Below are positions 43,708 to 61,958 of a stretch of 64,000 nt of DNA, in pieces (the first letter of the stretch is position 1; each line of letters opens with the position of its first letter). Origin of the DNA: a virus; IMG/VR virus record IMGVR_UViG_3300025592_000986; one strand, 5' to 3'. The notes beneath the pieces were generated by a model. It saw only the letters and a list, made by a program, of their open reading frames with translations, made no database searches and had not been told where the DNA came from. The position numbers and the translations under genes were made by a program.

Positions 43708-43781
43708 TGGGCCCACCTGGATTTGAACCAGAAACCTTCTGTTTATGAGACAGATGCTCTAACCGATTGAGCTATAGGCCC
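43708..43781 (-). tRNA. tRNA-Ile2 (CAU anticodon, lysidine-type); CCA not encoded
   Basis: GGGCCTATAGCTCAATCGGTTAGAGCATCTGT-CTCATAA-ACAGAAGGTTTCTGGTTCAAATCCAGGTGGGCCCA folds as a cloverleaf; C4-G69 and C5-G68 pairs; directly downstream of tilS. Confidence 0.9.
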
Positions 43782-45554: not shown

Positions 45555-45668
45555 TTACCACTTCCTACAAGACCAGTATCTTGCCTTGGTCTTGGGGCCT
45601 GGGTTCTTGCAGTTGTGCCTTGCTCTAAAGCTTTTTCTCGCCTTTGGGTTAGACTTTCTAATCTTCAT
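45555..45668 (-). CDS. Short basic Cys/His peptide (possibly a truncated module)
   Basis: MKIRKSNPKARKSFRARHNCKNPGPKTKARYWSCRKW, overlapping the end of the upstream ORF. Confidence 0.55.
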   Translation of the reverse strand: MKIRKSNPKARKSFRARHNCKNPGPKTKARYWSCRKW

Positions 45669-46254
45669 TGTTTTTTCCCTGCCTTCCAACATATGCTTTA
45701 ATTTTTGTTGGATTAAATTTAATCTCTCCAGTGTTGTCAGTTTCACTATTTTTAAGAAAAGCAGCAAAAACTCTGTGGCGGCCGCCCAAGATATCTACAA
45801 CTTTATCGCCTTCCATTTTAACTATAACAGGTTCGTGATCGCCACTACCCAATCCTGGGAGAGTATCGATAATACGCTGAATTTTTTCTCTATACTTGTC
45901 CATAGGAAAGTTTGGATTTAATCCCAAATGCTTATCCATTAAAAACTTCCTTTCTTCTGGTTCTATATCTTCCCACTGTAATTTCAAGATAACAGGTTTT
46001 TTGGCCCAATTTAAATTGTATCTATCGTAAACGCTTCTCGCAAACTCATCTGTTTTAAAAAACTTCTCTAATCCTATTTTATTAATATCTTCAGACCTAT
46101 CAATAGCATAATCTTTTGTCCCTTCATGACCGTACATATCATTAAATACAAAATCTGGTAAATGAGGAAATACTTTACTTTTAAGTTCTCTTTCGAATCC
46201 CTTAAATCTAGATTCGCTTAGATACCGTCTCCAATTTTCTATTATAAGTTTCAT
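45658..46254 (-). CDS. Leader-tagged protein with ParB/Srx-like motif
   Basis: MKLIIENWRRYLSE leader; EPVIV...ILGGRHRVFA. Confidence 0.65.
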   Translation of the reverse strand: MKLIIENWRRYLSESRFKGFERELKSKVFPHLPDFVFNDMYGHEGTKDYAIDRSEDINKIGLEKFFKTDEFARSVYDRYNLNWAKKPVILKLQWEDIEPEERKFLMDKHLGLNPNFPMDKYREKIQRIIDTLPGLGSGDHEPVIVKMEGDKVVDILGGRHRVFAAFLKNSETDNTGEIKFNPTKIKAYVGRQGKNNED

Positions 46255-46934
46255 TTCTTTTGTTTTACGTTTTTCGCTTTACCCCTGCGATTTGGGTTGG
46301 GATCTTCTTTTCTCTTCTTCTCATTGAGGTAGAGGTCAATCTCTTCGTCGATAATTTCATCTATCTCCTTGTTATTTCTTTTTGCTAACATCTCAGCATT
46401 ACGTTGATGTTGAATAACATTATGGTAATAGTCGGATGCTTCGCGGACCTCCTCTCGTGTTGGTAGATCCGCCTGTTCAGGTGGTACTTGAATACCCAAT
46501 CGGTTCTCAACTCTCTCTAAGGCAGATAATTGCTTTTCACTTAAATGAGGTTTAGAGAATCTGGTCCCTGGTCTACTCTTGGTCATAAGTTGCCTGATCA
46601 TACTATTCATAAAGTCAGATGTTCTTTCGTCGTTTGTGGCGGCAAGAACTGCCTTCATTCGATTGACTGCTGCGTCTCTGTGCATAGTGAAAAGTTTTAT
46701 CTTTTCTAATTGTTTCACTCCGCTATGTATGTTTGGATCGATTTTAAAATCTTCTTCGACAATTTCTGATAACGAAACTTTACCTTCATCAGCTTTTACA
46801 CAGTTTCTGTATGTCTTACCGTACATCTTTTTTGTTTTAGTGGTTGAATGAGTTTTGTAACCCTTCTGACAGCGTTCATTCAAGAATCCCTGTAACTCTT
46901 CTTCAATAATATTTAAAAGTTCTTTATTGGTCAT
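46251..46934 (-). CDS. Modular hypothetical protein with basic Cys-containing peptides
   Basis: IIEEELQGFLNE followed by RCQKGY...RNCVK; C-terminal YLNE followed by KKRKEDPNPNRRGKAK. Confidence 0.7.
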   Translation of the reverse strand: MTNKELLNIIEEELQGFLNERCQKGYKTHSTTKTKKMYGKTYRNCVKADEGKVSLSEIVEEDFKIDPNIHSGVKQLEKIKLFTMHRDAAVNRMKAVLAATNDERTSDFMNSMIRQLMTKSRPGTRFSKPHLSEKQLSALERVENRLGIQVPPEQADLPTREEVREASDYYHNVIQHQRNAEMLAKRNNKEIDEIIDEEIDLYLNEKKRKEDPNPNRRGKAKNVKQKK

Positions 46935-47659
46935 TTCTCACCCTTCCAGATCTTGCCTTGGCGACATCTCACTACAGCACCTGAAGCATAAGCAGATGGC
47001 CATACATCATACTTTCTTTTCGCTATTCTGGTACAACGATCATCTTTTTTCTTTTTCTTTTTCTTTTCGGCTAGTCTACTTCCATCTTCCTCTTCTAGCA
47101 TTCCAAAATTTTGGCCGTATCCTTGCACCAAACATGTTAGAGTTATTGCACCACTTTGTAGACAATCATCACCTGCCGCAGCCAGTAATCCTGTTTTTAC
47201 TATATCTGGTAGTTTATCTAAGATCTTTTTAGCAATTGGGTTTTGCAACAGGTCGCCTTTGGATAGGTTATGCGCGACTGTCGATGCCATCACGTCTTGT
47301 TCTTCTTTTTCTTTTCTTGTAAGTGATAATTTTGTCTGTTTATACAACTCATTCTGTTCTGGAGTGAAGTCTGTTAGCTTGATACCATTTAAGCCTGCCA
47401 GTTTTTTAATCTCTTTTGTACGCTGAATTCTTTCTTTCCTGCGCGATCGTGACCGACGTGTCTCCTCTATTTCACCTTGCCTCTCTGCAAGTTCGCTATC
47501 TGCGTCTGCTGCTGCAGCGTCGGCACCTAACTGTAGTGCTATGAGTTGCTTTATCGCTTCCTCTGCCTGTTTTTTATCTTTCGTGGATAGTTGTGCTGGC
47601 GTTGAACTGTAGTCAGATTCATTCAAAAACTTTTTCCAATTTTCCATTATGAGCTTCAT
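46931..47659 (-). CDS. Leader-tagged modular protein with C-terminal basic Cys peptide
   Basis: MKLIMENWKKFLNE; LAE followed by KKKKKKKDDRC...WPSAYASGAVVRC. Confidence 0.7.
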   Translation of the reverse strand: MKLIMENWKKFLNESDYSSTPAQLSTKDKKQAEEAIKQLIALQLGADAAAADADSELAERQGEIEETRRSRSRRKERIQRTKEIKKLAGLNGIKLTDFTPEQNELYKQTKLSLTRKEKEEQDVMASTVAHNLSKGDLLQNPIAKKILDKLPDIVKTGLLAAAGDDCLQSGAITLTCLVQGYGQNFGMLEEEDGSRLAEKKKKKKKDDRCTRIAKRKYDVWPSAYASGAVVRCRQGKIWKGEK

Positions 47660-47660
47660 T

Positions 47661-48074
47661 TTATAGACTCCTCAGTAGGTCGTTGAGTGACGCAAGTGCT
47701 TTTTCGTACTTGCCACCAACCAATTGATCCTGCATTTGATATAAAGCATTATACATCTTTTCCACTCTTTGTTTTGCACGGGCAGAGGAGAACTTTTGCT
47801 GATCACCAAACACCTCTGGGTACATTTGTTTGATTTTTTCAATATTGTCGACAAACTTGTCTAGAGGCACTACGCTTCCTGGTTTTTTCTTATCATATTC
47901 TTTTGAAAAATCTTGGTAGTGCTGAAGAGTTAAATTTAACTTATTTAACTTTTCTAAATATCCTGGATACTTTTTGTTGTACATAGATTGGTTAAGACCT
48001 GATAAATCAAAGGCCCTAGGGTCAATATCTGCTTCGTTTATGAATTTAGTCCAGTGCTCAAATATCTTTTTCAT
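47661..48074 (-). CDS. Leader-tagged hypothetical protein
   Basis: MKKIFEHWTKFINE variant leader. Confidence 0.7.
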   Translation of the reverse strand: MKKIFEHWTKFINEADIDPRAFDLSGLNQSMYNKKYPGYLEKLNKLNLTLQHYQDFSKEYDKKKPGSVVPLDKFVDNIEKIKQMYPEVFGDQQKFSSARAKQRVEKMYNALYQMQDQLVGGKYEKALASLNDLLRSL

Positions 48075-48105
48075 ACTAGTATGTAGTACGAAAAAATAGC
48101 TTTTC

Positions 48106-48435
48106 CTACTCTAAATCTTGTTCTGAGTTGTATTTTTTACAAAATAAGCGAAGATCTTTAACAGTTATACCTAGCATAGCTGCTGCTTCTTTTTGAGACT
48201 TTGTTGCAGATAGAGAAAATTTTACTAAAGAATCTTTTATAATATAATCAATAGTTTTAAAAATAGGAAAACCAAACAACTTTCCTTTAACTATTCTAGA
48301 AGATAGCTCTAACTTTAAAGCTATTATTTGTTCTAATGTAAGAGAGTTTAATATAGATTCAAATTGTTCATTAGTTACCTTCTCTTTTAGTAACTTCTTT
48401 GATATACTATAGTAGTGGTTTTTTCCAAGATTCAT
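48106..48435 (-). CDS. Putative Fis-like HTH DNA-binding protein
   Basis: SQKEAAAMLGIT...LR C-terminal HTH pattern; visibly AT-rich gene. Confidence 0.55.
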   Translation of the reverse strand: MNLGKNHYYSISKKLLKEKVTNEQFESILNSLTLEQIIALKLELSSRIVKGKLFGFPIFKTIDYIIKDSLVKFSLSATKSQKEAAAMLGITVKDLRLFCKKYNSEQDLE

Positions 48436-48498
48436 AACTTATTACTTTTAATAAATTAATTAATATCATACTTTTAGATACTAGTCAAACTTATTTTT

Positions 48499-49833
48499 TT
48501 ATTTATTTTGGCTCAATATGTTCTTGACAACTGCTGCAATTTCTGGTGTAATAGGTGTGTAGTTAGGGTTTAGCTTTCGGAGTTCACTAGATAATGATTT
48601 TGCAAACACTTCTGTTTCTTCCTCTGGGTTTACTTCTAAATTTCTGGCTAAGACCGCTAGTATTTCTTCGTCGCCCTCACCCACCTCCTCTTTAACCAAT
48701 AGATTAAAAGCTTGATCGCCCCAAGTTTCAATGACTGGGTTGTCATCTAACAGTTCCTCTAAAGGTGCTTCTTGGTCTATAACAGGCGATTCTAGATCAC
48801 CCTTAGCTTTTTCGTATTCAGGAGTAGTAGGTTCCTCGATTTCAGGGGTCATCGCATCTTCAAACACATCGAAGTGAAGTTTTAAATTTGTTATGAGGTA
48901 GTCATAAAATATCTCACGATCTTTTTCATTTGTATAGTTCCCAGAAGCCAATTTATAGGCTTTTCCAATTTGAGTGTCGATCTTGTTGATTGTTTCATAT
49001 GCGGCCAAAGCTCCAGCTTGGTCTCTGTCCGGCATACTGAACTTTTTAAAATCAGGATCCTCTCCGTCATCTTCGTCTTCTTTTTGATCCTTTGTCCCTA
49101 AAACGTCGATGAACTTGTCTTCGTCTTCTATATTTATAGAAACTTCACCTTCCTCAGATAGACTTGAAACTTCTTCTGGCTCTTCGTCATCAGGAGTACC
49201 ACCGGTAGCTAGCTCTAGAATGTTCCTGACAGCGTTAATTAAATGTTCTCTGAACGACTCTCTCTGGTTCTGGTCCGTGGTAAGCTTTTCATAGTCTATT
49301 TTTATAGTTGGTATTATATTATCTAAAAGTTCTTCTAAATAATTTATAGCAGTTGAATTATGGACTTTTCTTTCAGTAGCGGCTTCGATTATGATATTTT
49401 GTATCAGTCCTCGGAACTCAGTTAAGTTCTTTATGTTTTTAAAGTCTTCATCAAACTTTTTCTTCTTTTCAAATTTGATAAGTTGATCAAGTTCTTCTTT
49501 GAATAACAACATTTCTGCTATCGCTTCTCTTTTAATCATTTGTGTATCCCTCTTGTGCTTTTCGTTATCTTCATCATCAAAGTTTGCAAAAGCTCCTGGG
49601 GTGCCTTCGACTGAACCGCCAGACATTGAAGAAACCTCTTCTAACTCCTTGTCTTCGTTTGCGAAAAAAGCATTTGATTTGTCTTTTGGGCGAGCTTGGT
49701 TAAAAGGTGCGCCGTGTTTTACTAAATCTTGTCTACCGCCGTCGAGAAGTCTTGCGTGCCCTCGGCTAGCTCTAGGCTTAGCGACGCTACTTTGAAAACT
49801 CTCTTTTATCACTTCTTTGATGAATTCTAGCAT
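48499..49833 (-). CDS. Acidic hypothetical protein (possible head/scaffold-associated)
   Basis: Very Glu/Asp-rich, with many (I/L)xE sites. Confidence 0.6.
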   Translation of the reverse strand: MLEFIKEVIKESFQSSVAKPRASRGHARLLDGGRQDLVKHGAPFNQARPKDKSNAFFANEDKELEEVSSMSGGSVEGTPGAFANFDDEDNEKHKRDTQMIKREAIAEMLLFKEELDQLIKFEKKKKFDEDFKNIKNLTEFRGLIQNIIIEAATERKVHNSTAINYLEELLDNIIPTIKIDYEKLTTDQNQRESFREHLINAVRNILELATGGTPDDEEPEEVSSLSEEGEVSINIEDEDKFIDVLGTKDQKEDEDDGEDPDFKKFSMPDRDQAGALAAYETINKIDTQIGKAYKLASGNYTNEKDREIFYDYLITNLKLHFDVFEDAMTPEIEEPTTPEYEKAKGDLESPVIDQEAPLEELLDDNPVIETWGDQAFNLLVKEEVGEGDEEILAVLARNLEVNPEEETEVFAKSLSSELRKLNPNYTPITPEIAAVVKNILSQNK

Positions 49834-49834
49834 C

Positions 49835-51172
49835 TTACTTCGTACACCATTCCATCAAAAGTTTATTGAGGCGCGTTTGCTTTGTTTCGTAAAGTTTGGA
49901 AGTAGCTTTGATATCAGCAAACTTGTTCTCATACTCCTCCTTGACTCCGCCTTCTTCAACCTCTTCGTCCTCTAAAGGCCCACCAAGGACTGGATTTTCA
50001 CCTGACATCATTGCGTATTCATCTTCAATGGATGGAGCACCAGTACTAAGGCGGTCACGTCTTTCCTTATCGTCACGTTCTTTCTTTTTTGCTGCTGGTG
50101 TTTCAAATTTGGAGCCTGCAAACTTCTCATCAAGTTCTTTTTCCGGCTCTGCGCCTCCGTCACCAAGCATTCCGCGAACTTTTTCCATTGCCATATTGAT
50201 GTATCTAGTGACGCTGCCTTGTGCAAGATTACCTTGCTGAGCAGCCTGTAAAAGTAGTTGGCTGATTTGTTGAACTAGTGCTCTCTCTTGTGCAGTAACT
50301 CCACCCGCTGCGCCCGTTTTCGCTTGTTCTATGCCACCTTTTTTAAAGTCTGTCGTAGAAGCTCTCGCTTTCATATCAAGTTCTTGCTCGCTTACGTTTC
50401 CGTCGTCGTCAAAGTCGTAGCTGTAAACAGGGCTGAATCCTTTCTTACCACTAGGCATTGTGCCACCAACATCGGTTGGTTTTGGTTCTGGCTTCTTGAA
50501 AGGTTTACGTAGGTTGGCTTGACCGGTCATTGACTTGTCGGTCCTTGGACCATCGTATTTCGTCTCCGGTAGGCTTTTATCTTCCGTTTCATTGCCGCCA
50601 AGACAATGACCTTCGCTCTTTTCGCGATCATCCTTTCCAGGCTTCTTATCTGCCCAATCAGGTACGCCATCACCATCTTGGTCTGGCTTTTTTTCCTCTT
50701 GTTGCATTTTTTTGGCGATTGCCTCTTTGACCATAGTTCTTACAGTTTCTTTTAATCTAGATGTGTTCATTTTCTTGTTCTCCTTAATTTTTTTGTTATC
50801 TTCCCAGTCCCTGAAAAGTATATTTCCAAGTAAGTAGGCTTCTTTTTCCATATTTCTTAGGTGTGGATCTTTTTGTGCGTAACCATCGCCTGTTTCCGTT
50901 GGCCTATTAAAATCGCCGCGAGTGTTTTGAAGATGGTGCACCAATTCGTGCGCAACTGACCGAAGAACATCTTTGGTGTGCCGTCCTGAGATATAGACTA
51001 CCACTTTGGATTCTTCTGGTGAATAGTGTGCGGTTTTTCCGAGCGGATTTACAGAATTTTCTTCATCTTCTTGAAAATACAATTCTGGTTTAGACTCGTA
51101 ACCGAGTTCTTTTTGACAGTACGACATCAGGTCGTCAGCCAGTGGTTGGAGGTTTTCTTTCAAAATCTTCAT
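49835..51172 (-). CDS. HExxH metallopeptidase-like domain plus low-complexity tail with DxDxDG motifs
   Basis: SVAHELVH...EKEAY; DQDGDGVPD; DFDDDGNVS. Confidence 0.65.
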   Translation of the reverse strand: MKILKENLQPLADDLMSYCQKELGYESKPELYFQEDEENSVNPLGKTAHYSPEESKVVVYISGRHTKDVLRSVAHELVHHLQNTRGDFNRPTETGDGYAQKDPHLRNMEKEAYLLGNILFRDWEDNKKIKENKKMNTSRLKETVRTMVKEAIAKKMQQEEKKPDQDGDGVPDWADKKPGKDDREKSEGHCLGGNETEDKSLPETKYDGPRTDKSMTGQANLRKPFKKPEPKPTDVGGTMPSGKKGFSPVYSYDFDDDGNVSEQELDMKARASTTDFKKGGIEQAKTGAAGGVTAQERALVQQISQLLLQAAQQGNLAQGSVTRYINMAMEKVRGMLGDGGAEPEKELDEKFAGSKFETPAAKKKERDDKERRDRLSTGAPSIEDEYAMMSGENPVLGGPLEDEEVEEGGVKEEYENKFADIKATSKLYETKQTRLNKLLMEWCTK

Positions 51173-51214
51173 AGTTTAAACCTAAAAAATACACAATTGT
51201 ATACATTAAATAGT

Positions 51215-52213: not shown

Positions 52214-52236
52214 ATTATCCCCTTTGTTATGAGAAC

Positions 52237-52245
52237 ATTATAACA
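52237..52245 (-). promoter_or_regulatory. Extended -10 promoter upstream of purA
   Basis: TGTTATAAT on the minus strand, followed by an AGGGGA SD. Confidence 0.5.
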
Positions 52246-52252
52246 TACTAAT

Positions 52253-52447
52253 CTATTTTTTGATATGTTTCTTGATTGGCCTTCCTGGGTTCTTGGCCAT
52301 ATATTGGATGATTTCTTGGAGGTTATCGATTCTTTTACTTATTTTTCTTACTATAAATGTCACTATTCCCATCCAAGCCGCAGACGACAGTATAAAGGTC
52401 AATATTATGTAAAAAAGCGTCATAATCACTCGCCTTCCGTCTCCCAA
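52253..52447 (-). CDS. Small membrane protein
   Basis: Single hydrophobic helix with a basic tail. Confidence 0.55.
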   Translation of the reverse strand: MGDGRRVIMTLFYIILTFILSSAAWMGIVTFIVRKISKRIDNLQEIIQYMAKNPGRPIKKHIKK

Positions 52448-54855
52448 GGTGCGGGAAGGTCAGGATTAAGTAAATCTTCTGTTGACACTTGATCGTATTT
52501 CATATACTCATCCTCATCTTCGCCAGCTTTTGAATACTCTTCACTTAAATCTTTTTCATTCAAATACTCTTCTATCTCGGAGACAATTGAAGTCTTTTGC
52601 GCAATATCTGTGCCAAGATAAGAATTTATTGCAAAATCTAGCGATTCACTTAAACTTGCCGACTGTGGTTCAGGGTAATCTTCTGGAATATACCCTTTAC
52701 TAATCAAATTATAGTGTATCTGTTTCAAAGCATTCAACAATTGCCCGTCAGAAGCTTCGCCCCTTGCCCAAATCATAACCATTTCATAATGATTCAATAA
52801 AGCATCTGCCGGCTCTGACTCTTTGTGCTTTTCTGCAATTCTTAGTAGATCTTTGGTAACATCTTGTAAGCTATCGAGTCTTTCTACTTTCTTTTTTTCA
52901 ATTTCCTTTTCAACTGGCAATATATACCCTTGAATTGTTGCGACTGCTATCTTTACAATTGACTCATACTGTTTATCTATAAATGTAATCACATCTTTTA
53001 TCAAAGCCAGGCTTTCTTCTGTTATCGAAAGGTCATCTATTACGATTGCTATCTCCCCGTTTAAATCTTTGACTTTTTGAGTCAATAAATTAAATTGGAG
53101 TGTTTCGGGTATCGTCAATTCTTTAATCTCGGCCTGTGGTATACCAGGTAAAGGCAATTGTTGCTTTAAAGCTTTGATAATCTCTGCGTTTAACTTAGAA
53201 AGATTATTTTGAAGCAGTGAATCCAATTCAGGGTCATACGCGCCTCCCATTCTCCTGTCAAAATTGAAAGCTCCTGCGCCCCCTCGCATATACCTTCCAC
53301 TTTTCCAGTTTTCAATATTTACTTGCGGGATCGGGAAAGGTGGAGATTCAAACCGGAGTTCATCGTCTTCATCAAACTCTTTCTCACTTGACATAGTAAA
53401 GAATCTCAGGCCTTCGTTGAAAGCATCTGCATTTATTGCTGCAGCGCGTATAGCAGATGGCTTAATATAGCCTTCTTTCGCAAGCACCTTTCTAACGATC
53501 CTTTCAACTCCCTCTTTTTCATCCATATCAGACAACTCTTCTAGGAAAGACTCGTACCCATCGGGATTAGGTTCATAGGCCTCTGTGCTTACATCAAGTC
53601 TGATAGAAGTTTTATCATTATAGCTACTAAAGCCTACATCATCAAAGTAAAGAGAGGCTTGATTATCTAGCGCCTCCTTTATCTCTTCTGCTAAAGCGCC
53701 CTTCCCTTGCCAATCGTCTGGTAGTTCTCTTATGAACTCACTATCCCGTATTTCTACTTCCGTTCCACCAGAAAAGTACATATAATCATCATCCACGTCG
53801 GCGTTATAGAAGTAGTTTTTAATTCTATCTGCGTATTCCTCTTCTAGAGCTTCGATCTTTTCTTCGTATCCTGGTGTTGGAGGGTCACTTAGTATTGATT
53901 GGTACATTTCGTCTGTGATGGTTTCTATAATTCTTTCGATTTGGTTGTCCTCTTCATCGTCCAACTCCCAGAATTCTCTGCTGCCGTCGCCGGCTACGCC
54001 ACCAGTGCCGGGCAAGAACTCAAGATTTCTAGCAATCAGCTTTTTAAAATCATCTATGTCCCCATATTCTTCATCCACGGCATCGAAAAATGATGAAAAG
54101 TCTCCTTCACGGTCATAAACTAACGCTATCTTTCCATATTTATTGCCGTCTTCTTGTTTCAAGACATTTTTAAGATGGACCATCGCGAAAGACATTCCGT
54201 CCGCCGTATATTCGTTGAAGTAATTTTTGCACTCAGTTGCGGATATGCACCATCTGGTCGCCATACCATAGTATATTGAGGCAAATTCAGTAAGGGGGCG
54301 GCGAGCTATGATACCGTCATCGTCATAAATACCTTCAGATTCTTCTCGTGCTTTTGTTTTTCTTTTGTTTTTTTCTTGTTTTTTTTCTTCTGAACTGGAC
54401 TCTTTTGATTCAACAGCATCTTTCAAGCTTTCAAAATCATATTTGTTGACGTCTTTTTCTTCTAATGCCGATTGAAACCTTTCAAATTTCTTCATAACAT
54501 TCACCATACTGTCTATTAACGCTGGGATGGGCGACCCCTCCGAGCGCAGGGCATTTTGAAAATGCTGAATACGATGTGTGTCAGCTTTTATCTTAGCTTC
54601 TATTTGATATCTTTTTTCAATCTCTTTCATTACAAACTGTAGGTATTTTGAAGGTGCCTTGTCATCTATAATAGTTTCTAGTTTGTCTCTAGCCAGGCCA
54701 AGCCAACCAAGTTTTGTAATGTTTGGGTATTTTGCTTTGATATCTTTGATTCTTGCTTCAAGAAGCAGCCCATCGAAATATTCTACGACTTTTTGTTCGT
54801 GCTCATCAACTTCGATGGTATGGGGGTTGGGGTTTCGATATATATTCCAGACCAT
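52426..54855 (-). CDS. Large acidic hypothetical protein (809 aa)
   Basis: Long ORF; LLLE near the N-terminus; ASIYYGMATRWCIS motif. Confidence 0.7.
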   Translation of the reverse strand: MVWNIYRNPNPHTIEVDEHEQKVVEYFDGLLLEARIKDIKAKYPNITKLGWLGLARDKLETIIDDKAPSKYLQFVMKEIEKRYQIEAKIKADTHRIQHFQNALRSEGSPIPALIDSMVNVMKKFERFQSALEEKDVNKYDFESLKDAVESKESSSEEKKQEKNKRKTKAREESEGIYDDDGIIARRPLTEFASIYYGMATRWCISATECKNYFNEYTADGMSFAMVHLKNVLKQEDGNKYGKIALVYDREGDFSSFFDAVDEEYGDIDDFKKLIARNLEFLPGTGGVAGDGSREFWELDDEEDNQIERIIETITDEMYQSILSDPPTPGYEEKIEALEEEYADRIKNYFYNADVDDDYMYFSGGTEVEIRDSEFIRELPDDWQGKGALAEEIKEALDNQASLYFDDVGFSSYNDKTSIRLDVSTEAYEPNPDGYESFLEELSDMDEKEGVERIVRKVLAKEGYIKPSAIRAAAINADAFNEGLRFFTMSSEKEFDEDDELRFESPPFPIPQVNIENWKSGRYMRGGAGAFNFDRRMGGAYDPELDSLLQNNLSKLNAEIIKALKQQLPLPGIPQAEIKELTIPETLQFNLLTQKVKDLNGEIAIVIDDLSITEESLALIKDVITFIDKQYESIVKIAVATIQGYILPVEKEIEKKKVERLDSLQDVTKDLLRIAEKHKESEPADALLNHYEMVMIWARGEASDGQLLNALKQIHYNLISKGYIPEDYPEPQSASLSESLDFAINSYLGTDIAQKTSIVSEIEEYLNEKDLSEEYSKAGEDEDEYMKYDQVSTEDLLNPDLPAPWETEGE

Positions 54856-54858
54856 TTT

Positions 54859-55869
54859 CTACTTCCTTGTAAATACGGCTTTTCCGCCCTGCATTTTAAA
54901 ATTAACTTCTCCGCCGAGCGCTTTCTCAGCTTTTGCTTTTAAGTCTGCAACTCGTTCTTGCTGTGCTCTAAGTCTGGAACTCACGCCATTAATTTTTTTA
55001 AAGCCAGTTTTAGATACAGCAGACTTTCCATCTTTTGAGACTACCAGTTCTGACTTGGCCGACTTTGCTTTCTGCGCGGCGATGTCGTCAATTTTATCTG
55101 AGATAATATCAGCGGCTGAATTTATGGACATGTTGTTTGTAGTTTTTTGGTCGTCACCAACTTTATCTGCGATTTTGATGACCGTGTTTGTGACCATATT
55201 TACAATATCTTTATCACCTTTTGTACTTGTGCCAACAGTCTTTGTTAGATTTGAAACTGCATTTGCAAGTTTTAGAACCCCGGCGTCACTGTCGGATACT
55301 TTAACGTCTATAGTATTTGGATCTTTAAACCCTAGCTTGTTCATTTTTTTATTCATAACTTGGGTGATTTGCGCTGCAGCCTGACTAGGAGATATTTCAG
55401 CTTGTGCTGTAGACGGGACAGCACCTGCTGCAGCCATCATACCCAATCCTGCCATACCCATTTTGGCTTTTGATCCAATGTTTTTCGCAAAATCCATCAA
55501 ACCCTCGTCAATCAAGCCTTGGTCGATCATTCTTTGTATTTCTTCGTAGACTAATTGGGAAATCTGTTCTTCTAGGCCCTCAAACTTTCTAATCAAAAGG
55601 TCTTCTGCTTCATCGTACCCGTTTGCAAAGACTTCACCGTCTAGCATAAACTGATCGCCTGCACCATTGTAGGAAAGCACTTCACCAGTTGGTAATGTAA
55701 CTGGCCCTTCTCTGGCTGCTTTATCAAGCATCGCAGTTATCTCATCACTCGTTTGTGTGAAGCCTTCAGGTTCGTTGTAACCAGGATCAGAGAAACTGGG
55801 GTCATCGGTTGGTCCCCTGAAGCTTTGCTCATTTTTAAAGCTACGCCAATTTTCTATTATAAGTTTCAT
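54859..55869 (-). CDS. Leader-tagged protein with an internal signal-peptide-like segment
   Basis: MKLIIENWRSFKNE; residues 123-157 look like a Sec signal ending in AQA. Confidence 0.7.
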   Translation of the reverse strand: MKLIIENWRSFKNEQSFRGPTDDPSFSDPGYNEPEGFTQTSDEITAMLDKAAREGPVTLPTGEVLSYNGAGDQFMLDGEVFANGYDEAEDLLIRKFEGLEEQISQLVYEEIQRMIDQGLIDEGLMDFAKNIGSKAKMGMAGLGMMAAAGAVPSTAQAEISPSQAAAQITQVMNKKMNKLGFKDPNTIDVKVSDSDAGVLKLANAVSNLTKTVGTSTKGDKDIVNMVTNTVIKIADKVGDDQKTTNNMSINSAADIISDKIDDIAAQKAKSAKSELVVSKDGKSAVSKTGFKKINGVSSRLRAQQERVADLKAKAEKALGGEVNFKMQGGKAVFTRK

Positions 55870-56198
55870 TTGTATATCCTCGCATATCCTTCTTCTATAA
55901 GTAGATTGTTTATATTAACTTCGTCGATGAAAATTTCACCTAAACATCGTCCGTATTTACCAACACCGTGAGATTTTAGCGTAAACTTGCCCTCTGACCC
56001 CTCTAGAAGCTCTTCTAAGCGACGTTTAGCCTCAAGCCCAGCCTCTTTCTCAGATAAGTCTCTAGTTCGCGTCTCAGGGGCGTCAATTCCCAAAAATCTT
56101 ATTCTTTTTTTCACAAAAGTGCTGAAACCCAAGTCGATTTCTGCATCAATCGTGTCTCCATCGATAATTTTTATTAAATTTGCTGCGTAGATGAACAT
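55866..56198 (-). CDS. Thermonuclease (SNase-like)
   Basis: IIDGDTI, IRFLGIDAPE, KYGRCLG. Confidence 0.9.
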   Translation of the reverse strand: MFIYAANLIKIIDGDTIDAEIDLGFSTFVKKRIRFLGIDAPETRTRDLSEKEAGLEAKRRLEELLEGSEGKFTLKSHGVGKYGRCLGEIFIDEVNINNLLIEEGYARIYK

Positions 56199-57013
56199 TA
56201 TTGTCTATTTTTGGCGAATTTCCACCACTCCTCTTGTATTTTCACAGTTACAGGTTCAGATTTACTAAACGACATCTTCCTGTCGTAAGCAAGGTGCTTC
56301 AAATTTGATAATTTTTCTAAAATTCCAGAATTTCTTAGAATTTTGAAGGCCAGATTCTCTGTTGAATAGATTCCACCATCGGAAAGTCCAGAAGAGCGCA
56401 TATGTCTTATCTTTCCTCTGATTTTTTCTGCTGCATCAAAGGCTTGGCTGTATTTTTTGTCATCAATATGGTCCTCAACACACTCAACTTCTTTTGCGAG
56501 TGCTTCAGCTTTGATAGTCGCGTTGTTGAGGTCTAATTTTTGCTCGGTTTTGGTCGGGGTGGTCAACCATTTATTTTTCAGTATGGAATAAACTCCATTT
56601 GCATAGTGTTCTTCATTGATATCTTGAAAATACATCTCAACTTCGTGGCCATATATAAAGATATCGTGTCTTTCGTTCCATTGTGCTCTTTTCAAATCTA
56701 GAAAATCTTTAACTAAGGCTTTATCTGAAACAAATTCTGAAAAGTCTAACAATATATGCAAGTCGACGTCCGATTTGGTGTGCCAGTTGTAGCTGGCCAA
56801 AGACCCGGTGAAGGTGACGTCTTTGACTTTGCTGCCCAACTCTAGGGAATCTATGAAATCCTTGGCGATATTCAACAATCTTTGCCTTATTTTTTCTTCT
56901 AGTTCGTTGTTGACCCAAAAGTTTTCTTGTAACTCATCGTTTATGCGTATGCCCGAGGTATCAAGCTCTGCCTCTTCAAGGAAATCTTTCCAGTTTTTAT
57001 TAAAATTCATCAT
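56198..57013 (-). CDS. Pol-beta superfamily nucleotidyltransferase with variant leader
   Basis: TGSLASYNW...SDVDLHI (GS...DxD); NKNWKDFLEE N-terminus. Confidence 0.8.
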   Translation of the reverse strand: MMNFNKNWKDFLEEAELDTSGIRINDELQENFWVNNELEEKIRQRLLNIAKDFIDSLELGSKVKDVTFTGSLASYNWHTKSDVDLHILLDFSEFVSDKALVKDFLDLKRAQWNERHDIFIYGHEVEMYFQDINEEHYANGVYSILKNKWLTTPTKTEQKLDLNNATIKAEALAKEVECVEDHIDDKKYSQAFDAAEKIRGKIRHMRSSGLSDGGIYSTENLAFKILRNSGILEKLSNLKHLAYDRKMSFSKSEPVTVKIQEEWWKFAKNRQ

Positions 57014-57425
57014 TTTTTACTACTTCCAGTGCAACTTTTTCAAATTTGTTGGGATTTTTAACGCTCTCAACATCTCTAAATAGGTATTCGGTGTGTTCAT
57101 CACTTAAGATTATGTCCCCATCGATGTATCTTGATGTATAAAAGATGATATTTTCTATTTCTACCACCTTTATTGGTAAACCTAGGCTTAGTGCGGTCTC
57201 TTCACGAACTTCTCTTCTTAAACCTACAATCAGACCTTCTCCAACGTGGGTGTGTCCGCCTGGAAGGTCCCACTCGCCAGCAAACTTTTCCACATAATCG
57301 CTTCTTCTTAGGAATAATACTTTGTTCTGGGAGTTTACAATGATCGCTTTTACTACCTGTTTAGAGTCCTGCTTCTTTTTCTGCTCTAACAAGGAATTCC
57401 AACTCTTCAATATCTCTTTCATCAT
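57000..57425 (-). CDS. Nudix hydrolase with variant leader
   Basis: WDLPGGH...GE...GLRREVREET Nudix box; MKEILKSWNSLLE. Confidence 0.9.
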   Translation of the reverse strand: MMKEILKSWNSLLEQKKKQDSKQVVKAIIVNSQNKVLFLRRSDYVEKFAGEWDLPGGHTHVGEGLIVGLRREVREETALSLGLPIKVVEIENIIFYTSRYIDGDIILSDEHTEYLFRDVESVKNPNKFEKVALEVVKNDEF

Positions 57426-57489
57426 AATAAATAGTTTGCGAAACGGCCAAAAGGAGTGGCTTTTTTGTTGACTGGGGGGTATTTATTGT
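57426..57489. promoter_or_regulatory. Divergent pair of putative late promoters
   Basis: ACTATTTATT-ATG on minus (57435-57426) and GTATTTATTGT-ATG on plus (57479-57489). Confidence 0.6.
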
Positions 57490-57897
57490 ATGAAATTAAT
57501 AATGGAAAATTGGCGCGGGTTTTTAAAAGAATACGCACCCATCAAAGATCGTCCGGCGATCAGTGTATACCCTGAGCCGGGTATGCTATTCAACTCAGTA
57601 TCTGGTGAACCAACACAACACTTTTACGACCTGTTAAAATCTATAAATGACAACAAGTCTTTAATGATGTCAGAAGACGACCCCTACGTGGACAATTGGC
57701 TTGAAAGTGTTAAGGCTAAAACCGAAGAGGCCTTGAATTCATTAAAAGACACCAGTCCACAAATGAGTGAGAGGGAAGTTGCCAAACTCAGACAAATAGA
57801 AAAAGCTGCAGCAGAAGTGCAACAAATCATTCGAGCTAGGAATGTGTCTGATCCGAGCGTCCCCACGCTACAGGATTTCGGACCATCTCAGGGTTGA
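57490..57897 (+). CDS. Leader-tagged hypothetical protein on the opposite strand
   Basis: MKLIMENWRGFLKE; GTATTTATTGT directly before the ATG. Confidence 0.8.
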   Translation: MKLIMENWRGFLKEYAPIKDRPAISVYPEPGMLFNSVSGEPTQHFYDLLKSINDNKSLMMSEDDPYVDNWLESVKAKTEEALNSLKDTSPQMSEREVAKLRQIEKAAAEVQQIIRARNVSDPSVPTLQDFGPSQG

Positions 57898-58043
57898 AAG
57901 ACTTATATTTCTTTTTGGGCTTCTTGTTTTATATTTTATTCTTATTATTCGCGATACCCACAATTCCAAAAGAAAAATGCAAGAACATAGGGCATCAAAG
58001 GTACATGTACTTTTGCGTTAAATATTGCAAAGATAGCAAATAA
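57894..58043 (+). CDS. Small membrane protein (49 aa)
   Basis: TTGA-coupled to the upstream gene; MKDLYFFLGFLFYILFLLFAIPTIPKEKC... Confidence 0.4.
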   Translation: MKDLYFFLGFLFYILFLLFAIPTIPKEKCKNIGHQRYMYFCVKYCKDSK

Positions 58044-58044
58044 G

Positions 58045-58458
58045 TTATAATCTTATTAGGTGTGTGATTATTTGACCAACTCCCTCAAATCTTAAATCAC
58101 CCTTTCCTTCTTCTACTACAACCATGGTTGGTGTTTGAGATATTCCCATCATTCCCGATATTTGCCTAACCCACAGATCGTTCGTGTTAATCACCATAAC
58201 CTTATGCATCAGTTTCTTTTCTTTCAGGTAATGCATCAACTTAATACAGGGTTGGCAACCTGGATTGGAGAATATAACTCTGTGAGGTCTTGTTACGTCA
58301 AGTAAGGCGCGATTAATAAAACTCTCGTCCTTGTAAAACCCACCAGATCTTAAAACATTTTGACCTTCGTAATCTACAGAAATCTCCGATCTTCTTATAT
58401 TTTCTGTAGAAGAACACGATAAAAACAAAACTAATGAAGCAATAATGAAAACTTTCAT
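58045..58458 (-). CDS. Thioredoxin/glutaredoxin-like lipoprotein
   Basis: FLSC lipobox, CQPC, cis-Pro QTPT. Confidence 0.75.
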   Translation of the reverse strand: MKVFIIASLVLFLSCSSTENIRRSEISVDYEGQNVLRSGGFYKDESFINRALLDVTRPHRVIFSNPGCQPCIKLMHYLKEKKLMHKVMVINTNDLWVRQISGMMGISQTPTMVVVEEGKGDLRFEGVGQIITHLIRL

Positions 58459-58613
58459 TTACTAGTCCTCCGATTTTTTACTTTTTTCTTCAAAACTTTA
58501 ACTTGAACTTCTAAGTCGTCAATTCTGGAAGTTAAGGAATAGTACGAGGAGCCAATGCCAATACTTAATGTGATTATTGTTATGAGGGTACCAATATTTA
58601 ACTTGACGTTCAT
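58455..58613 (-). CDS. Small membrane protein (52 aa)
   Basis: MNVKLNIGTLITIITLSIGIGSSYYSL...; ATGA overlap with the downstream gene. Confidence 0.55.
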   Translation of the reverse strand: MNVKLNIGTLITIITLSIGIGSSYYSLTSRIDDLEVQVKVLKKKVKNRRTSK

Positions 58614-58635
58614 ACAGGTATGTATCACTGAAGAA

Positions 58636-59196
58636 TTAGTTAAGGTAGGTTTTTATGTTCTTGATTTCTGTAAAGTGGTTAAAACATAGGGGTTGGTATG
58701 ATTCCTTGCCACCGAGCTGGACTTCTCCACTACCCTTGGCCAATCTTCTTGTGTAATACGCATCTTTTTCACACTTGGCACACACGGCAGGGCAAATTTC
58801 AATCTTTGTAGCGAACGGCATAATCTTTGAAACCTCGGACAGGCTGTATGGATGAGACGTTAGTTGCAGGGTTGAGACCAATATTGTCTTGCCGAAAGAA
58901 AAAAGTTCCAAGAGAGCATCGGCCGAGTGTGGTATCATAAACATTTCATCAACAGCTATTATATCGAAGTCAAACGATTTGGCGGCGATTTGTGCTCCAT
59001 CCACTACAGAAAACGACTGTACCTTCTGACCTTTGTGCGTAGACACAGAACCTGTCGAATACCTCTGATCTATACTGGGCTTGAATAATATAGTTTTTTT
59101 GTTTTGGTATTGGTACCGTTCAAGATCTGCAAGAAGTCTGGTAGTCTTCCCGCCGAACATAGGACCGGTGTATATTTTAAATTCTGGTACGTTCAC
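58636..59196 (-). CDS. tdk: Thymidine kinase
   Basis: GPMFGGKTT, KPSIDQRY, VDE, CAKC...YQPLC. Confidence 0.92.
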   Translation of the reverse strand: MNVPEFKIYTGPMFGGKTTRLLADLERYQYQNKKTILFKPSIDQRYSTGSVSTHKGQKVQSFSVVDGAQIAAKSFDFDIIAVDEMFMIPHSADALLELFSFGKTILVSTLQLTSHPYSLSEVSKIMPFATKIEICPAVCAKCEKDAYYTRRLAKGSGEVQLGGKESYQPLCFNHFTEIKNIKTYLN

Positions 59197-59498
59197 TAGT
59201 AAGATTCCCTGATGAGAGCGCCGTTACTCCAGCCTTGTACGTAGGGTCCGTCTTCTGACGAAAGTTTCTTATGAACATCGATCACATCGTTAATAGATAA
59301 AAGGGACAGTACTAAAACCTTGCTTGAGTACATATATAATTCATCTAATGATATTTCATTTTTCTTCAAAAATTCCAAGTGATTGTTTGGATCATATATT
59401 ACGATTACGTGATCGATGCTGTGGAAATCTCCTATCCACTTTTCCATTATCTCTGCATACGACACTGCATATGATGTGTGAAAGTGAAACGGCTTCAT
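59196..59498 (-). CDS. Hypothetical protein
   Basis: 100-aa ORF coupled to both neighbours. Confidence 0.6.
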   Translation of the reverse strand: MKPFHFHTSYAVSYAEIMEKWIGDFHSIDHVIVIYDPNNHLEFLKKNEISLDELYMYSSKVLVLSLLSINDVIDVHKKLSSEDGPYVQGWSNGALIRESY

Positions 59499-59998
59499 TT
59501 TGAATGCTTGTCCGCGATTGTTTGAGACGCCCAGGCGTCGGGCTTAACCTTACATTGGAAGCCTGCTCCAGCAACATACCCCTTGAGCATATCTGCATAC
59601 TTAGAAGTTCCCTTTTTAGCTTGAAACGGCGAGACATCAAGATGTAGTTCCATACGGTCTGGGTTGATGGAATAATTTTCCCTTAAAAGCTCAGCCAACT
59701 CCACTGTCCTTCTCACTTCCTCTGTTATTCTTGTGGGTAGAGTCCGAAAATGGTTTTTTGGAATGTAATCTCTGGCAAAGAAATATTTGCTGGATATCCC
59801 CCTACCATAAACACAAATGACAGTGGCGAATGTTATTTTATGTGAAGTTGCAAATGAATCTGTACCTATAAACAATTTAGCTCCCTTGTTCACGAACTTA
59901 CTGCAGACACCAACAATTGATTCTAGATCAACATCATCGCCAGAGGCGCTCTTCCATTCCATCCTGGAAAATTCATTTATTTCAGGTATCTCAACCAT
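59495..59998 (-). CDS. RNase H-like YkuK/DUF458 family protein
   Basis: FIGTDS, RITEEV, ELHLDV, KPDAWAS...ADK. Confidence 0.85.
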   Translation of the reverse strand: MVEIPEINEFSRMEWKSASGDDVDLESIVGVCSKFVNKGAKLFIGTDSFATSHKITFATVICVYGRGISSKYFFARDYIPKNHFRTLPTRITEEVRRTVELAELLRENYSINPDRMELHLDVSPFQAKKGTSKYADMLKGYVAGAGFQCKVKPDAWASQTIADKHSK

Positions 59999-60327
59999 TC
60001 GAACCGCTTTCTGTTTTTGAGGTAGCCTATTACGTGTTCGTTCCTATAGGCCTCCATCTCAAATGGTGAAGCCCTGTATGCATCTTTGCCGTTTTTTAAC
60101 TTTACCATATAATAGAGCCAAAATGCAAGGTATAAAATCCAATGTCCGATAAATAATAATTCTTTTTGCTGCAACCAATGAATACATTCATGCTGTTTCG
60201 TTGATTCCGAAATCTTTCCCCGACTCCAAACAAACGGACCAAAGGATATGGCCCATATTGTGATCGGTGCAATGTAACTTAAGAGTGCCGGCACTCTACT
60301 ATCTTCTATAAAAATTGGTAATTTCAT
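59977..60327 (-). CDS. Small HExxH metallopeptidase-like protein
   Basis: QHECIHWLQQ...PFEMEAY. Confidence 0.7.
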   Translation of the reverse strand: MKLPIFIEDSRVPALLSYIAPITIWAISFGPFVWSRGKISESTKQHECIHWLQQKELLFIGHWILYLAFWLYYMVKLKNGKDAYRASPFEMEAYRNEHVIGYLKNRKRFEWLRYLK

Positions 60328-60366
60328 AAGACCCCTTTTCTATTATGTGAAATGTAATTGCCAGGC

Positions 60367-60783
60367 TCACCCAACACTGCGACCAATAAAAGTCCAACCT
60401 GGGTCTCTGCCGCGTACTTCCTCTTCGGGTTCCTTTTCCGGCACGGGCTCAACCTCTACCTCTGGCTCTTCTACCTCTGGCTCTGGTTCTTTTTTCGCTT
60501 CAGGTTCCGGCGTCGGGCACGATATTCTTGCCCATTTGCAAGCCTCTGGCATATCATCATACAACAAGGGTCTGCCGTTAGGGTCTATAGAAAGCCAGAC
60601 CTGCATTTGTGCAGCAATAGGAAAAGTCTGGTGGAATTTTTTATCAAGAGCAACCACCTCACCTTTGGAAAGTGGTCTGCCTAATATTTTTACAACTTTC
60701 TTGAGTTTTGATTTGCTAGGCGCACCACCTGGTAACTTTTTCTCGTTAATAAATCCACGCCAGTTTTCCATTATGAGTTTCAT
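60367..60783 (-). CDS. Leader-tagged protein with Glu/Pro repeat tail
   Basis: MKLIMENWRGFINE; EPEPEVEEPEVEVEP. Confidence 0.75.
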   Translation of the reverse strand: MKLIMENWRGFINEKKLPGGAPSKSKLKKVVKILGRPLSKGEVVALDKKFHQTFPIAAQMQVWLSIDPNGRPLLYDDMPEACKWARISCPTPEPEAKKEPEPEVEEPEVEVEPVPEKEPEEEVRGRDPGWTFIGRSVG

Positions 60784-60819
60784 TTACTATCCTCCAAGTC
60801 AATGCAAGTAACTAGTCGC

Positions 60820-61497
60820 CTAGTCTTTGATATTCGGGTACAAATATTTTTTAGCTATCTTCTTAGCTTCTTTGTTGTCACTGGGGAAGTGTGCACCTCT
60901 GATAATTCTAGACTTTTCTATCTTCTCAGCAATATCAAAAAAAGATTGTTGGTGATCTGAGTGTTTGTCTGATAAATAGTATGCCATAGTCCAAGCCTGA
61001 GCAGTGTGCCCACTCGGAAAAGATGGTGAATCATCAGAATCTGTCTTTATCGACTTGACGTCATACCCAACTAAGTGTCCAAGTTGTTCGGGACGGGGCC
61101 TGTCATATCTTACTTTCAATTTTAAAGTAATTAAAGAAACGTCGCTATAAATCTCTTTTAAGAGATCTTTGTCATAATCCAAGCCTTCGCTATCAAGGTA
61201 CTTGAAAAACATCCGCAGAGGCTTCTTGTCGGCCTCTCGAAGCTCATCCCTGTCCATTTCTGTGTTAGTTGTCATTGCGTTTAGAACTTTTTTAAGTTCT
61301 TGCCTGGTTGTTTCGCTATCGTTATCGGGAAATTTAGATATCGGAAGATCAGACAACCTTATATCTATGACTTTTGGTGACTGAGATAGTTGCTTTTTAA
61401 ACGATCGGTCTTTTATCTCGCCAAACTTAAGATTCTTGATATCCTTTTTTTTATTCTCGGATAAGAAGTTATTCCAATTTTCCATTATGAGTTTCAT
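60820..61497 (-). CDS. Leader-tagged PAP2 phosphatase / vanadium haloperoxidase-family protein
   Basis: MKLIMENWNNFLSE; KxxYxRPRP, PSGH, SRxxxGAHFPSD. Confidence 0.85.
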   Translation of the reverse strand: MKLIMENWNNFLSENKKKDIKNLKFGEIKDRSFKKQLSQSPKVIDIRLSDLPISKFPDNDSETTRQELKKVLNAMTTNTEMDRDELREADKKPLRMFFKYLDSEGLDYDKDLLKEIYSDVSLITLKLKVRYDRPRPEQLGHLVGYDVKSIKTDSDDSPSFPSGHTAQAWTMAYYLSDKHSDHQQSFFDIAEKIEKSRIIRGAHFPSDNKEAKKIAKKYLYPNIKD

Positions 61498-61946
61498 ACT
61501 TCACTCTTGGCAAACAAATATCCATCATCACCATCGTGTGATTCTACCACAAGAATGCCATCCTGTTTAGTGAAGGTTGGGTGTTTTGTTGTCCATAACA
61601 CTTCAAACTCTTCTTCAAAGGCATTCTCGCCTTGTTGTTCTATATATCTGTCTACGTCTGGTGGGCGCATTTCGTTTTCATAACCAGCAGCATAGAAAGG
61701 ATTTGTAGTTACCCACGTCGCTGGTGATTCAGGAGTTAACCCGTACTTCTCTAGCCATCCTGCAAATTCTTCTTCGGTTGTGTTTCCTCTGTCAAACTCT
61801 TCTTCCATCAGTTGAGCAATGGGAAGCGTCTTTCCTCCGAACGAGGACCATAAGGGAATGTTGCCTTCCAAGCTGGCAGTGCGATTGTGATCATGATCCT
61901 TGTAGCTCTCTGTGAACTTCCTGAAGTTTTCCATTATGAGTTTCAT
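61494..61946 (-). CDS. Leader-tagged hypothetical protein
   Basis: MKLIMENFRKFTE; ACTATTTATTGT directly before the ATG. Confidence 0.75.
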   Translation of the reverse strand: MKLIMENFRKFTESYKDHDHNRTASLEGNIPLWSSFGGKTLPIAQLMEEEFDRGNTTEEEFAGWLEKYGLTPESPATWVTTNPFYAAGYENEMRPPDVDRYIEQQGENAFEEEFEVLWTTKHPTFTKQDGILVVESHDGDDGYLFAKSEV

Positions 61947-61948
61947 AC

Positions 61949-61958
61949 AATAAATAGT
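61949..61958 (-). promoter_or_regulatory. Putative phage late promoter, ACTATTTATT
   Basis: Immediately before the ATG at 61946; the same 10-mer occurs at 57426-57435 and 2656-2665. Confidence 0.6.

Follow-up and report, generated by a model that had tools for sequence, protein, structure and literature searches.

A shared N-terminal leader on unrelated proteins of an uncultured T4-like phage lineage: a candidate capsid-targeting propeptide

Introduction

The capsid-targeting sequence (CTS) carried by the internal proteins IPI, IPII and IPIII of phage T4 and by Alt was reportedly described by Mullaney and Black in 1996. Here we deal with an element that resembles it, a leader of 14 residues found at the N-termini of ten otherwise unrelated proteins encoded by IMG/VR virus record IMGVR_UViG_3300025592_000986, of which a stretch of 64,000 nucleotides (the window) was analysed. 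The CTS of IPI, IPII, IPIII and Alt has been reviewed (PMC3012670, PMC5694885). In T4, CTS propeptides of 10-20 residues are present on gp24, the internal proteins and Alt, and the cut is made after the Glu of L/I-x-E (PMC5694885, PMC3012670); the cut sites of Alt are ITE-6 and LTE-619 (PMC5694885). The internal-protein loci of T-even phages are hypervariable, and only the CTS is conserved among them (PMC3012670). In the T4 record itself we read two exact copies of the CTS, as well as the sites ..LTE/A of gp23 and ..LRE/S of gp24 (the slash marks the cut).

The leader described below is real, conserved at the level of the peptide, portable and lineage-specific; it ends in the motif of the T4 protease and co-occurs with that protease. 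On this pattern we judge it rather probable that the leader is a T4-CTS-like capsid-targeting propeptide, a tag by which proteins would be loaded into the head and then trimmed.

Results

The leader is conserved as a peptide at gene starts

All ten leader-bearing starts claimed in a preliminary description of this DNA were recovered by the open reading frame (ORF) listing and a six-frame regular-expression scan of the 64-kb window, where they lie at 45.6-62 kb (Table 1). As had also been claimed, seven are nearly identical and three are variants: seven have the strict form M-K-L-I-[MI]-E-N-[WF], and in the three looser copies it is the second half, W-x-x-[FL]-[LI]-x-E, that is retained. The six-frame scan of the whole window gave no leader motif outside ORF starts and none in 1-44 kb. 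By our own estimate, the 8-residue core of the leader would be expected by chance about 1e-5 times per window. In 7 window genes the first 30 residues hold the core W-x-x-[FYL]-[LIVM]-x-E; with an even spread, 0.8 would be expected. The leader was located at the ORF start or within a few codons of it in all ten window copies and in 142 listed copies from IMG/VR. The proteins behind it are unrelated, in agreement with the preliminary description; the mean column identity past the leader is 6%, and different Pfam folds follow it.

The 60 nt located 5′ of each window copy were found to be unrelated, and the codons of the leader vary synonymously. Among 117 listed copies on other contigs, all six Leu codons are used for Leu3, and Asn7, Glu6 and Arg9 vary synonymously too. 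Since the upstream DNA is unrelated and the codons vary in this way, the conserved entity is the peptide and no DNA repeat, and a reading of the leader as a DNA repeat or recombination module was rejected on the same grounds. Some codon bias was nevertheless observed, with ATA at 90% of codon 4 (Ile4) against a background of 38%, and AAA at 82% of codon 2 (Lys2) against 54%.

The leader ends in a hydrophobic-x-Glu motif

Searched with a degenerate DNA pattern of its residues 1-8, the leader was found on at least 119 IMG/VR stretches, and the statistics on leader proteins given in this text rest on the matches listed in that scan. The pattern constrained residues 1-8 only, with positions 9-14 left free, and 116 distinct leader proteins were listed. 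Their 14-residue consensus is M-K-L-I-M-E-N-W-[RKN]-x-[FY]-[LVI]-x-E, with R, K or N at residue 9 in 93%, F or Y at residue 11 in 84%, L, V or I at residue 12 in 73% and Glu at residue 14 in 65%. Conservation collapses at residues 15-16, where all that is left is a slight enrichment of E, D and Q. The (I/L)-x-E ending claimed earlier was confirmed for most copies: in 80% of the listed leaders, a [LIVMF]-x-E has its Glu at residue 13-15, and the P3 residue is hydrophobic in nine of the ten window copies. The leader end follows the substrate pattern of T4 gp21, not universally among the copies.

Read from the sequence, a helical wheel places Met1, Ile4, Met5, Trp8, Phe11 and Leu12 within about 120 degrees, so that the leader peptide is predicted to be a clean amphipathic helix. 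A signal-peptide reading was rejected because the leader is amphipathic and charged, not hydrophobic. In the AlphaFold2 (AF2) model of the ParB/Srx-like window protein, residues 2-28 form one helix, with a confidence of 62-67 for the first 20 residues and of at least 87 for residues 21-190. The low confidence at the leader, compared with that of the domain, fits a free handle.

The leader is confined to one lineage of large T4-like phages

The window encodes baseplate wedge proteins of the T4 type (gp6- and gp25-like) and a late sigma factor like gp55, together with PhoH, purA, thymidine kinase, a cysteine synthase-like gene and a large sugar-biosynthesis block, and it is a fragment of an uncultured marine T4-like myovirus of ~190 kb. 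The nearest cultured phages are Microcystis phage Mel-JY01 and Flavobacterium phage immuto, with ~30% identity in the gp6-like protein; the nearest relative in IMG/VR is G003, a 190-kb contig judged complete, with a gp6 identity of 59%. A megablast search of the region against cultured phages gave no match. A tblastn search against cultured phages gave no usable match with the leader, a query that is too short and makes the search insensitive, and no homologue for the ParB-like cargo or for two of its relatives. A literature search for the motif string found nothing, and one for Mel-JY01 found no paper.

In 596 Gb of prokaryote genomes, the leader pattern had three matches, where by our estimate about one would be expected by chance; two were chance ORFs of 11 codons and one was a phage-like fragment in a WOR-3 metagenome-assembled genome (MAG). 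The leader is virus-specific and confined to this phage lineage. The WOR-3 fragment (CP070664.1, 200-208 kb; L122:1284-4315) holds a leader ORF and an 808-aa homologue of the 809-aa window protein, and it lies right after a run of N. Either phage DNA was wrongly scaffolded there, or the fragment points weakly to the host; the latter was not trusted, because of the position of the phage-like stretch after the N run in the scaffold.

For all leader contigs of at least 40 kb, the CheckV completeness values imply genomes of 180-200 kb. The complete genomes have 2, 3, 4, 4 and 8 strict copies, and the window, with 7 strict and 3 loose copies in 16 kb, stands at the top of this range. The number of copies is on the scale of T4, which has three internal proteins and Alt, and not in the hundreds.

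The lineage has T4-type head machinery

The preliminary description had called for a prohead protease, and a gene of the Peptidase_S77 family (T4 gp21-type) was found in relatives, namely in all six leader genomes with a completeness of 90% or more and, overall, in 21 of the 40 leader contigs. In G003 and in a second relative, G004, the order of the head module is T4-like: terminase, portal, two small genes, protease, small core protein, scaffold and capsid protein. The protease of the lineage aligns to T4 gp21 across the conserved His, Ser and Asp motif regions. Its major capsid protein (MCP) aligns to T4 gp23, including the N-terminal delta-domain, and has ..LLRE/AS where T4 has the maturation site ..FLTE/AE, so that the predicted cut site of the MCP carries the same motif as the leader end.

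In 21 genomes, the protease begins with M-(x)-K-L-L-R-E-Y-Y-E-L-C-x-G-G-x-C-x-D-L-L-T-E. This N-terminus has M-K-L-[LI]-x-E-x-[YW] in common with the leader and bears an L-x-E of its own, and in a MAFFT alignment LLIETW of T4 gp21 was found at the same place as the N-terminal motif of the lineage protease. The slot after the protease gene, which is usually taken by the small core protein, was occupied by an inserted gene instead in 10 of the 21 genomes. In four of the 21, the insert has W-[RK]-x-F-[LV]-x-E near its N-terminus, and these inserts belong to three unrelated families; such starts occur in no more than ~5% of the genes of two complete relatives.

Leaders are swapped in front of a conserved domain

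The ParB-like cargo named in the preliminary description had no Pfam match, and its assignment stands on other signs: it has a GGxHR motif, its AF2 model reached a predicted local distance difference test (pLDDT) score of 90.3 and a predicted template modelling (pTM) score of 0.83, and its top Foldseek matches were all ParB, Noc, PadC and sulfiredoxin, with weak E-values of 0.3-1. An exhaustive HMMER search with this ParB/Srx-like protein gave 26 relatives, all metagenomic. In the alignment, the domain starts at an R-[FY]-K-G-[FY] core, and at least three unrelated leader classes were found before it: the window-type leader, a class of 17-19 residues rich in L-R-x-x-I-R-E, and a class of 10-11 residues with M-[KR]-F-[KR]-[ED]-W-[LI]..E. 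One member had no leader at all. A Glu stands in one column, two residues before the core, in 19 of 22 members, and the residue at P3 is usually L, I or V. Swapped lineage-specific tags with a kept junction motif are what an address label with a conserved release site predicts, and the pattern suggests that the tag and the head core may co-evolve. We regard this leader swapping as the most useful new result.

Shared tags were also found in two other viral lineages that encode homologues of the ParB/Srx-like protein. At least nine neighbouring genes in 20 kb of a 309-kb contig carry M-K-[YLI]-I-I-T-E, and at least eight neighbouring genes of a second lineage carry M-K-L-Y-x-I-L-F-E; the three of these contigs that are at least 51% complete have an S77 protease. 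The 309-kb contig encodes one. Shared-tag loci in other lineages lie at L213:8000-20100, L203:290-16700 and L200:4800-10300. The tag M-K-[YLI]-I-I-T-E-[SK]-Q resembles the propeptide of T4 Alt, cut at ITE-6. In Microcystis phage Mel-JY01 (PP395634.1; L217-L220), a 10-residue tag of the type M-I-K-L-K-S-L-L-K-E occurs on five genes, one of them right after the capsid gene (regions 26740-27465, 60276-62718 and 96164-96964).

Cargos turn over fast and lack replication enzymes

Of the nine leader cargos of the window besides the nucleotidyltransferase-like protein, none has a full-length homologue in G003 or G004; of 15 neighbouring genes without a leader, 12 have homologues there, in conserved order. 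This turnover of the cargos matches the pattern of the T-even internal-protein loci. The PAP2 and Nudix cargos named in the preliminary description were both well supported by Pfam (Table 1). The Pol-beta-type nucleotidyltransferase named there proved borderline, at 20.9 bits against a Pfam cut-off of 21; its homologues in G003 and G004 are 42-43% identical and have a similar loose leader, and the gene of the one in G003 also has the promoter-like motif.

About 90% of 119 listed leader proteins had no Pfam or PHROG family. The remaining cargos in the list include P-loop kinases, GNAT, 2H phosphoesterase, M23 peptidase, C5 methyltransferase, cytidylyltransferase, deoxyribonucleotidase and TMEM65-like membrane proteins. 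No polymerase, helicase, primase or structural protein was present among the 119 listed leader proteins. Frequent leaders on clearly non-virion proteins such as replication enzymes had been named beforehand as an observation that would speak against a packaging tag; with none of the 119 a core replication protein and a handful of them nucleotide-metabolism enzymes, the reading was not refuted.

Leader genes share a promoter-like motif with virion genes

In the window, G003 and G004, 20 of the 36 occurrences of the 8-mer ACTATTTA lie at most 60 nt upstream of a gene start on the same strand. The motif precedes the gp6-like gene in the window and in G004, the scaffold gene in G004 and several head-module genes in G003. 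It also precedes leader genes, two in the window and two in G003, and the first gene of one leader operon in G004. This distribution suggests that the leader genes may be expressed late, together with the virion genes.

Table 1. Leader genes, promoter-like motifs and neighbouring features of the window (positions in the 64,000-nucleotide stretch)
Coordinates	Strand	Feature	N-terminus or leader	Evidence or remark
2658-2665	-	ACTATTTA		upstream of gp6-like baseplate gene
14500-38200	-	sugar-biosynthesis block		UDP-glucose dehydrogenase-like, carbamoyltransferase, several glycosyltransferases; unusually large for a phage
42494-43192	-	ClpP-like protease gene		
43707-43781		tRNA, anticodon CAT		adjoins the PP-loop ORF
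43806-44417	-	PP-loop ORF		ATP_bind_3, TilS-type
45658-46254	-	198-aa ParB/Srx-like cargo	strict, MKLIIENW..YLSE	ORF and regular expression, AF2, Foldseek
46251-46934	-	227-aa protein	20-residue amphipathic N-terminus ending FLNE	like 'class B' leaders of ParB-like homologues
46931-47659	-	242-aa protein	strict	phrog_727; C-terminal Cys-containing ~34-aa motif alone common to relatives (G004, L010)
47661-48074	-	137-aa protein	looser, variant MKKIFEHW..FINE	no Pfam or PHROG match; no homologue in G003/G004
49835-51172	-	445-aa protein		HExxH (HELVHH) zinc-protease-like motif; no Pfam family
51207-51214	-	ACTATTTA		upstream of gene 49835-51172
52426-54855	-	conserved 809-aa protein	no leader	G003 and L122 homologues start leader-like, W-[KR]-[KQ]-F-[LI]-N
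54859-55869	-	336-aa protein	strict, ending FKNE	no family match; no homologue in G003/G004
56198-57013	-	271-aa Pol-beta-type nucleotidyltransferase-like protein	looser, ..NKNWKDFLEE; double Met	NTP_transf_2, E 4.9e-4
57000-57425	-	141-aa Nudix hydrolase	looser, MMKEILKSWNSLLE; double Met	NUDIX, E 1.7e-13; ACTATTTA 2 nt before ATG
57428-57435	-	ACTATTTA		upstream of Nudix gene
57490-57897	+	135-aa protein	strict	sole leader gene on + strand; top leader hidden Markov model (HMM) score of the window, 34.9 bits
60367-60783	-	138-aa protein, acidic Pro/Glu-rich tail	strict	no family match
60820-61497	-	225-aa PAP2 phosphatase	strict	PAP2, E 2.1e-9
61494-61946	-	150-aa protein	strict, Phe for Trp8 (MKLIMENF..FTE)	first gene of minus-strand run; ACTATTTA 4 nt upstream
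61951-61958	-	ACTATTTA		ahead of leader-gene run

Neighbouring genes and side observations

The leader gene on the + strand has a homologue in L086 that likewise bears the leader. The 227-aa protein encoded at 46251-46934 has a short Cys-containing motif near its N-terminus and adjoins the 242-aa leader protein, which has a C-terminal one (phrog_727, phrog_38880); these motifs are the only parts of the two proteins common to relatives. The N-terminus of the 227-aa protein is possibly a second class of leader, as judged from its likeness to leaders of ParB-like homologues. For the 809-aa protein, a search of the protein atlas gave viral hypothetical proteins only. The 445-aa protein with the zinc-protease-like motif is preceded by ACTATTTA; in G003 and G004, conservation covers the ~160 residues at its N-terminus.

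The tRNA and the adjoining PP-loop ORF, both on the minus strand, look like a phage-borne pair of tRNA-Ile2 and lysidine synthase, which would serve ATA codons; ATA accounts for 38% of the Ile codons in G003 and stands at codon 4 in 90% of the listed leader copies. The ClpP-like protease gene lies apart from the head module, 2.5 kb from the leader cluster. All five complete relatives have a ClpP-like gene in addition to that of the S77 prohead protease.

Discussion

The preliminary description had read the leader as a portable T4-style address label, and each prediction of that reading examined at the level of sequence was borne out. The lineage has an S77 protease, the leaders end in L/I-x-E, the MCP site has the same motif and the cargo is modular and fast-changing; furthermore, leaders are swapped, inserts occur beside the protease gene, and a late-promoter-like motif is common to leader genes and structural genes. 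Docking on the core, cleavage, retention in the virion and injection are what we infer from these patterns. In the mechanism proposed, the leader peptide would fold as a short amphipathic helix, one face of which carries Ile4, Trp8, Phe11 and Leu12, and this helix would dock the new protein onto the scaffolding core during prohead assembly. The gp21-type (S77) prohead protease would then cut after the terminal Glu of hydrophobic-x-Glu, and the mature enzyme would stay in the head and enter the host with the DNA. That the cargos act in host takeover or against host defence is a guess.

Several observations weigh against a capsid-targeting propeptide. The head module is absent from the window, and the S77 protease was found in relatives only. 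Glu14 is absent in 35% of the listed leaders and 20% have no hydrophobic-x-Glu at 13-15; one window leader, that of the gene starting at 55869, ends in K-N-E, and L-x-E is in any case a short and common motif. The likeness of the leader to the T4 CTS and to the protease N-termini is too short for statistics, and is to be taken as a lead only. The leader HMM, searched over every ORF of the window and of two complete relatives, matched no scaffold, capsid or portal protein; its sole internal matches fell by chance in a conserved sugar epimerase-like enzyme. The conserved Glu of the ParB-like family could be a residue of the domain and not a cut site. A few of the cargos, namely deoxyribonucleotidase, cytidylyltransferase and kinases, are not usual virion enzymes. 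Finally, the T4 late promoter TATAAATA was neither enriched nor placed at gene starts, and ACTATTTA stands oddly close to the ATG of leader genes, at 2-8 nt, compared with 18-51 nt before structural genes; leaderless transcripts or a second role of the motif in translation start are possibilities.

The leader might instead be an uncleaved docking tag for a hub outside the capsid, such as a multi-enzyme complex made by the phage, a patch of membrane or a replication compartment; it would then gather many different enzymes at one site in the infected cell. The clean amphipathic helix would suit such a tag, as would its appearance in AF2 as a low-confidence continuation of the first helix, a free handle; so would the several cargos with a predicted transmembrane stretch soon after the leader, the few nucleotide-metabolism enzymes and the 35% of listed leaders that have no terminal Glu. 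A hub of this kind leaves unexplained why hydrophobic-x-Glu is kept at a fixed distance, even in swapped leaders, and why leader-like starts turn up repeatedly between the protease and scaffold genes of the head operon. No protein came up as a candidate for the hub, and we consider this explanation unlikely.

It is unlikely as well that the leader loads proteins into the virion and is never removed, or that it addresses another part of the particle or acts as an auxiliary scaffold element. The evidence for packaging is the same in these cases, and the third of the listed leaders that lack Glu14 would be accommodated. Against them, the T4-type cut motif is kept at the junction of leader and cargo in most leaders and in the swapped ones, and the protease and capsid protein of the lineage hold the same motif at the expected sites.

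A third explanation, to which we give little credit, is that the leader is an N-terminal degron for an AAA+ protease such as ClpXP, which would give potent enzymes a short, timed life. The ClpP-like gene near the cluster and in the complete relatives speaks in its favour. The leader also fits the loose pattern of ClpX N-motif 2, which Flynn et al. reportedly gave in 2003 as Met, a basic residue, three hydrophobic residues, X5 and a hydrophobic residue. ClpX recognises three classes of N-terminal degrons (PMC12723719). The degron class is loose, however, and needs neither the invariant Glu6-Asn7-Trp8 nor the terminal hydrophobic-x-Glu. Lineage-specific swapping fits co-evolution with a partner from the phage better than recognition by a conserved host unfoldase, and no ClpX-like gene was seen in the window. 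A feature of the nucleic acid or of translation (an A/T-rich initiation region, a codon ramp or a recombination module) would explain the AAA and ATA bias at codons 2 and 4 and the promoter-like motif that abuts some ATGs, but it is largely refuted by the synonymous variation at Leu3, Glu6, Asn7 and Arg9, the unrelated upstream DNA and the conservation of Trp8, Phe11 and Glu14 as amino acids, and we regard it as most improbable.

If the leader is a capsid-targeting propeptide that works as in T4, it permits the head-carried, injected proteins of an uncultured ocean phage to be listed from sequence alone. The class of injected proteins includes the best-known counter-defence factors (T4 IPI*, Alt and P1 Dar) and is otherwise invisible in metagenomes; with ~90% of the listed tagged proteins outside any known family, a large number of candidates for host takeover or anti-defence would come into view. 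Should the 14-residue tag work, the engineering of phage capsids would also gain a second and independent handle for packaging, and Mel-JY01, the nearest isolate, could be a laboratory model for such tags. Beyond this lineage, we can only tentatively suggest that uncultured large T4-like lineages have one modular address-label system in common. Each lineage would possess its own tag, matched to its own head core and cut by the conserved S77 protease, and the tags would be exchanged on enzymes of one rapidly changing repertoire from which all lineages draw (ParB/Srx-like, Nudix, PAP2, 2H phosphoesterase, nucleotidyltransferase, M23 peptidase and methyltransferase). The injected set, readable from the genome sequence, might then be an arsenal against nucleotide-signalling and restriction defences.

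Among known systems, the T4 CTS is like the leader in being a short N-terminal peptide on otherwise unrelated, hypervariable proteins with few copies per genome, and the lineage has the matching gp21-type protease, scaffold and gp23-type capsid protein with a delta-domain. The two peptides agree in M1, K2 and E6, in having a hydrophobic residue at both 4 and 8, and in the terminal hydrophobic-x-E, a likeness too short for significance. The leader differs in its length of 14 residues (10 in T4), its invariant Trp8 and its sequence as a whole, and in the third of copies without the terminal Glu. No homology between the cargos could be detected; those of the leader include recognisable enzymes (PAP2, Nudix, nucleotidyltransferase, ParB/Srx-like, M23 and 2H phosphoesterase). 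As for the propeptides of T4 gp24, gp23 and gp21, the capsid protein and protease of the lineage keep L-x-E at homologous places; each of those T4 proteins serves in structure or assembly and has a single fixed partner, whereas the leader is portable over unrelated proteins.

Outside the T4 type, the ejection proteins of phiKZ and SPN3US are likewise loaded as precursors and trimmed after a Glu, and their paralogues can have identical N-termini (PMC5694885, PMC10052503). Their propeptides differ in being mostly 80-160 residues long, with an A/S/G-x-E motif and an S80 protease, and they belong to another phage lineage. In the Dar system of P1 (DarA, DarB, Hdf and others), enzymes including a methyltransferase/helicase are carried in the capsid and injected, and they protect the DNA (PMC9024508, PMC12810830); they are loaded by an ordered hierarchy of protein-protein contacts and have no common short N-terminal tag. 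Compared in this way, the leader would add a new class of sequence, and a further lineage, to a mechanism already known in T4.

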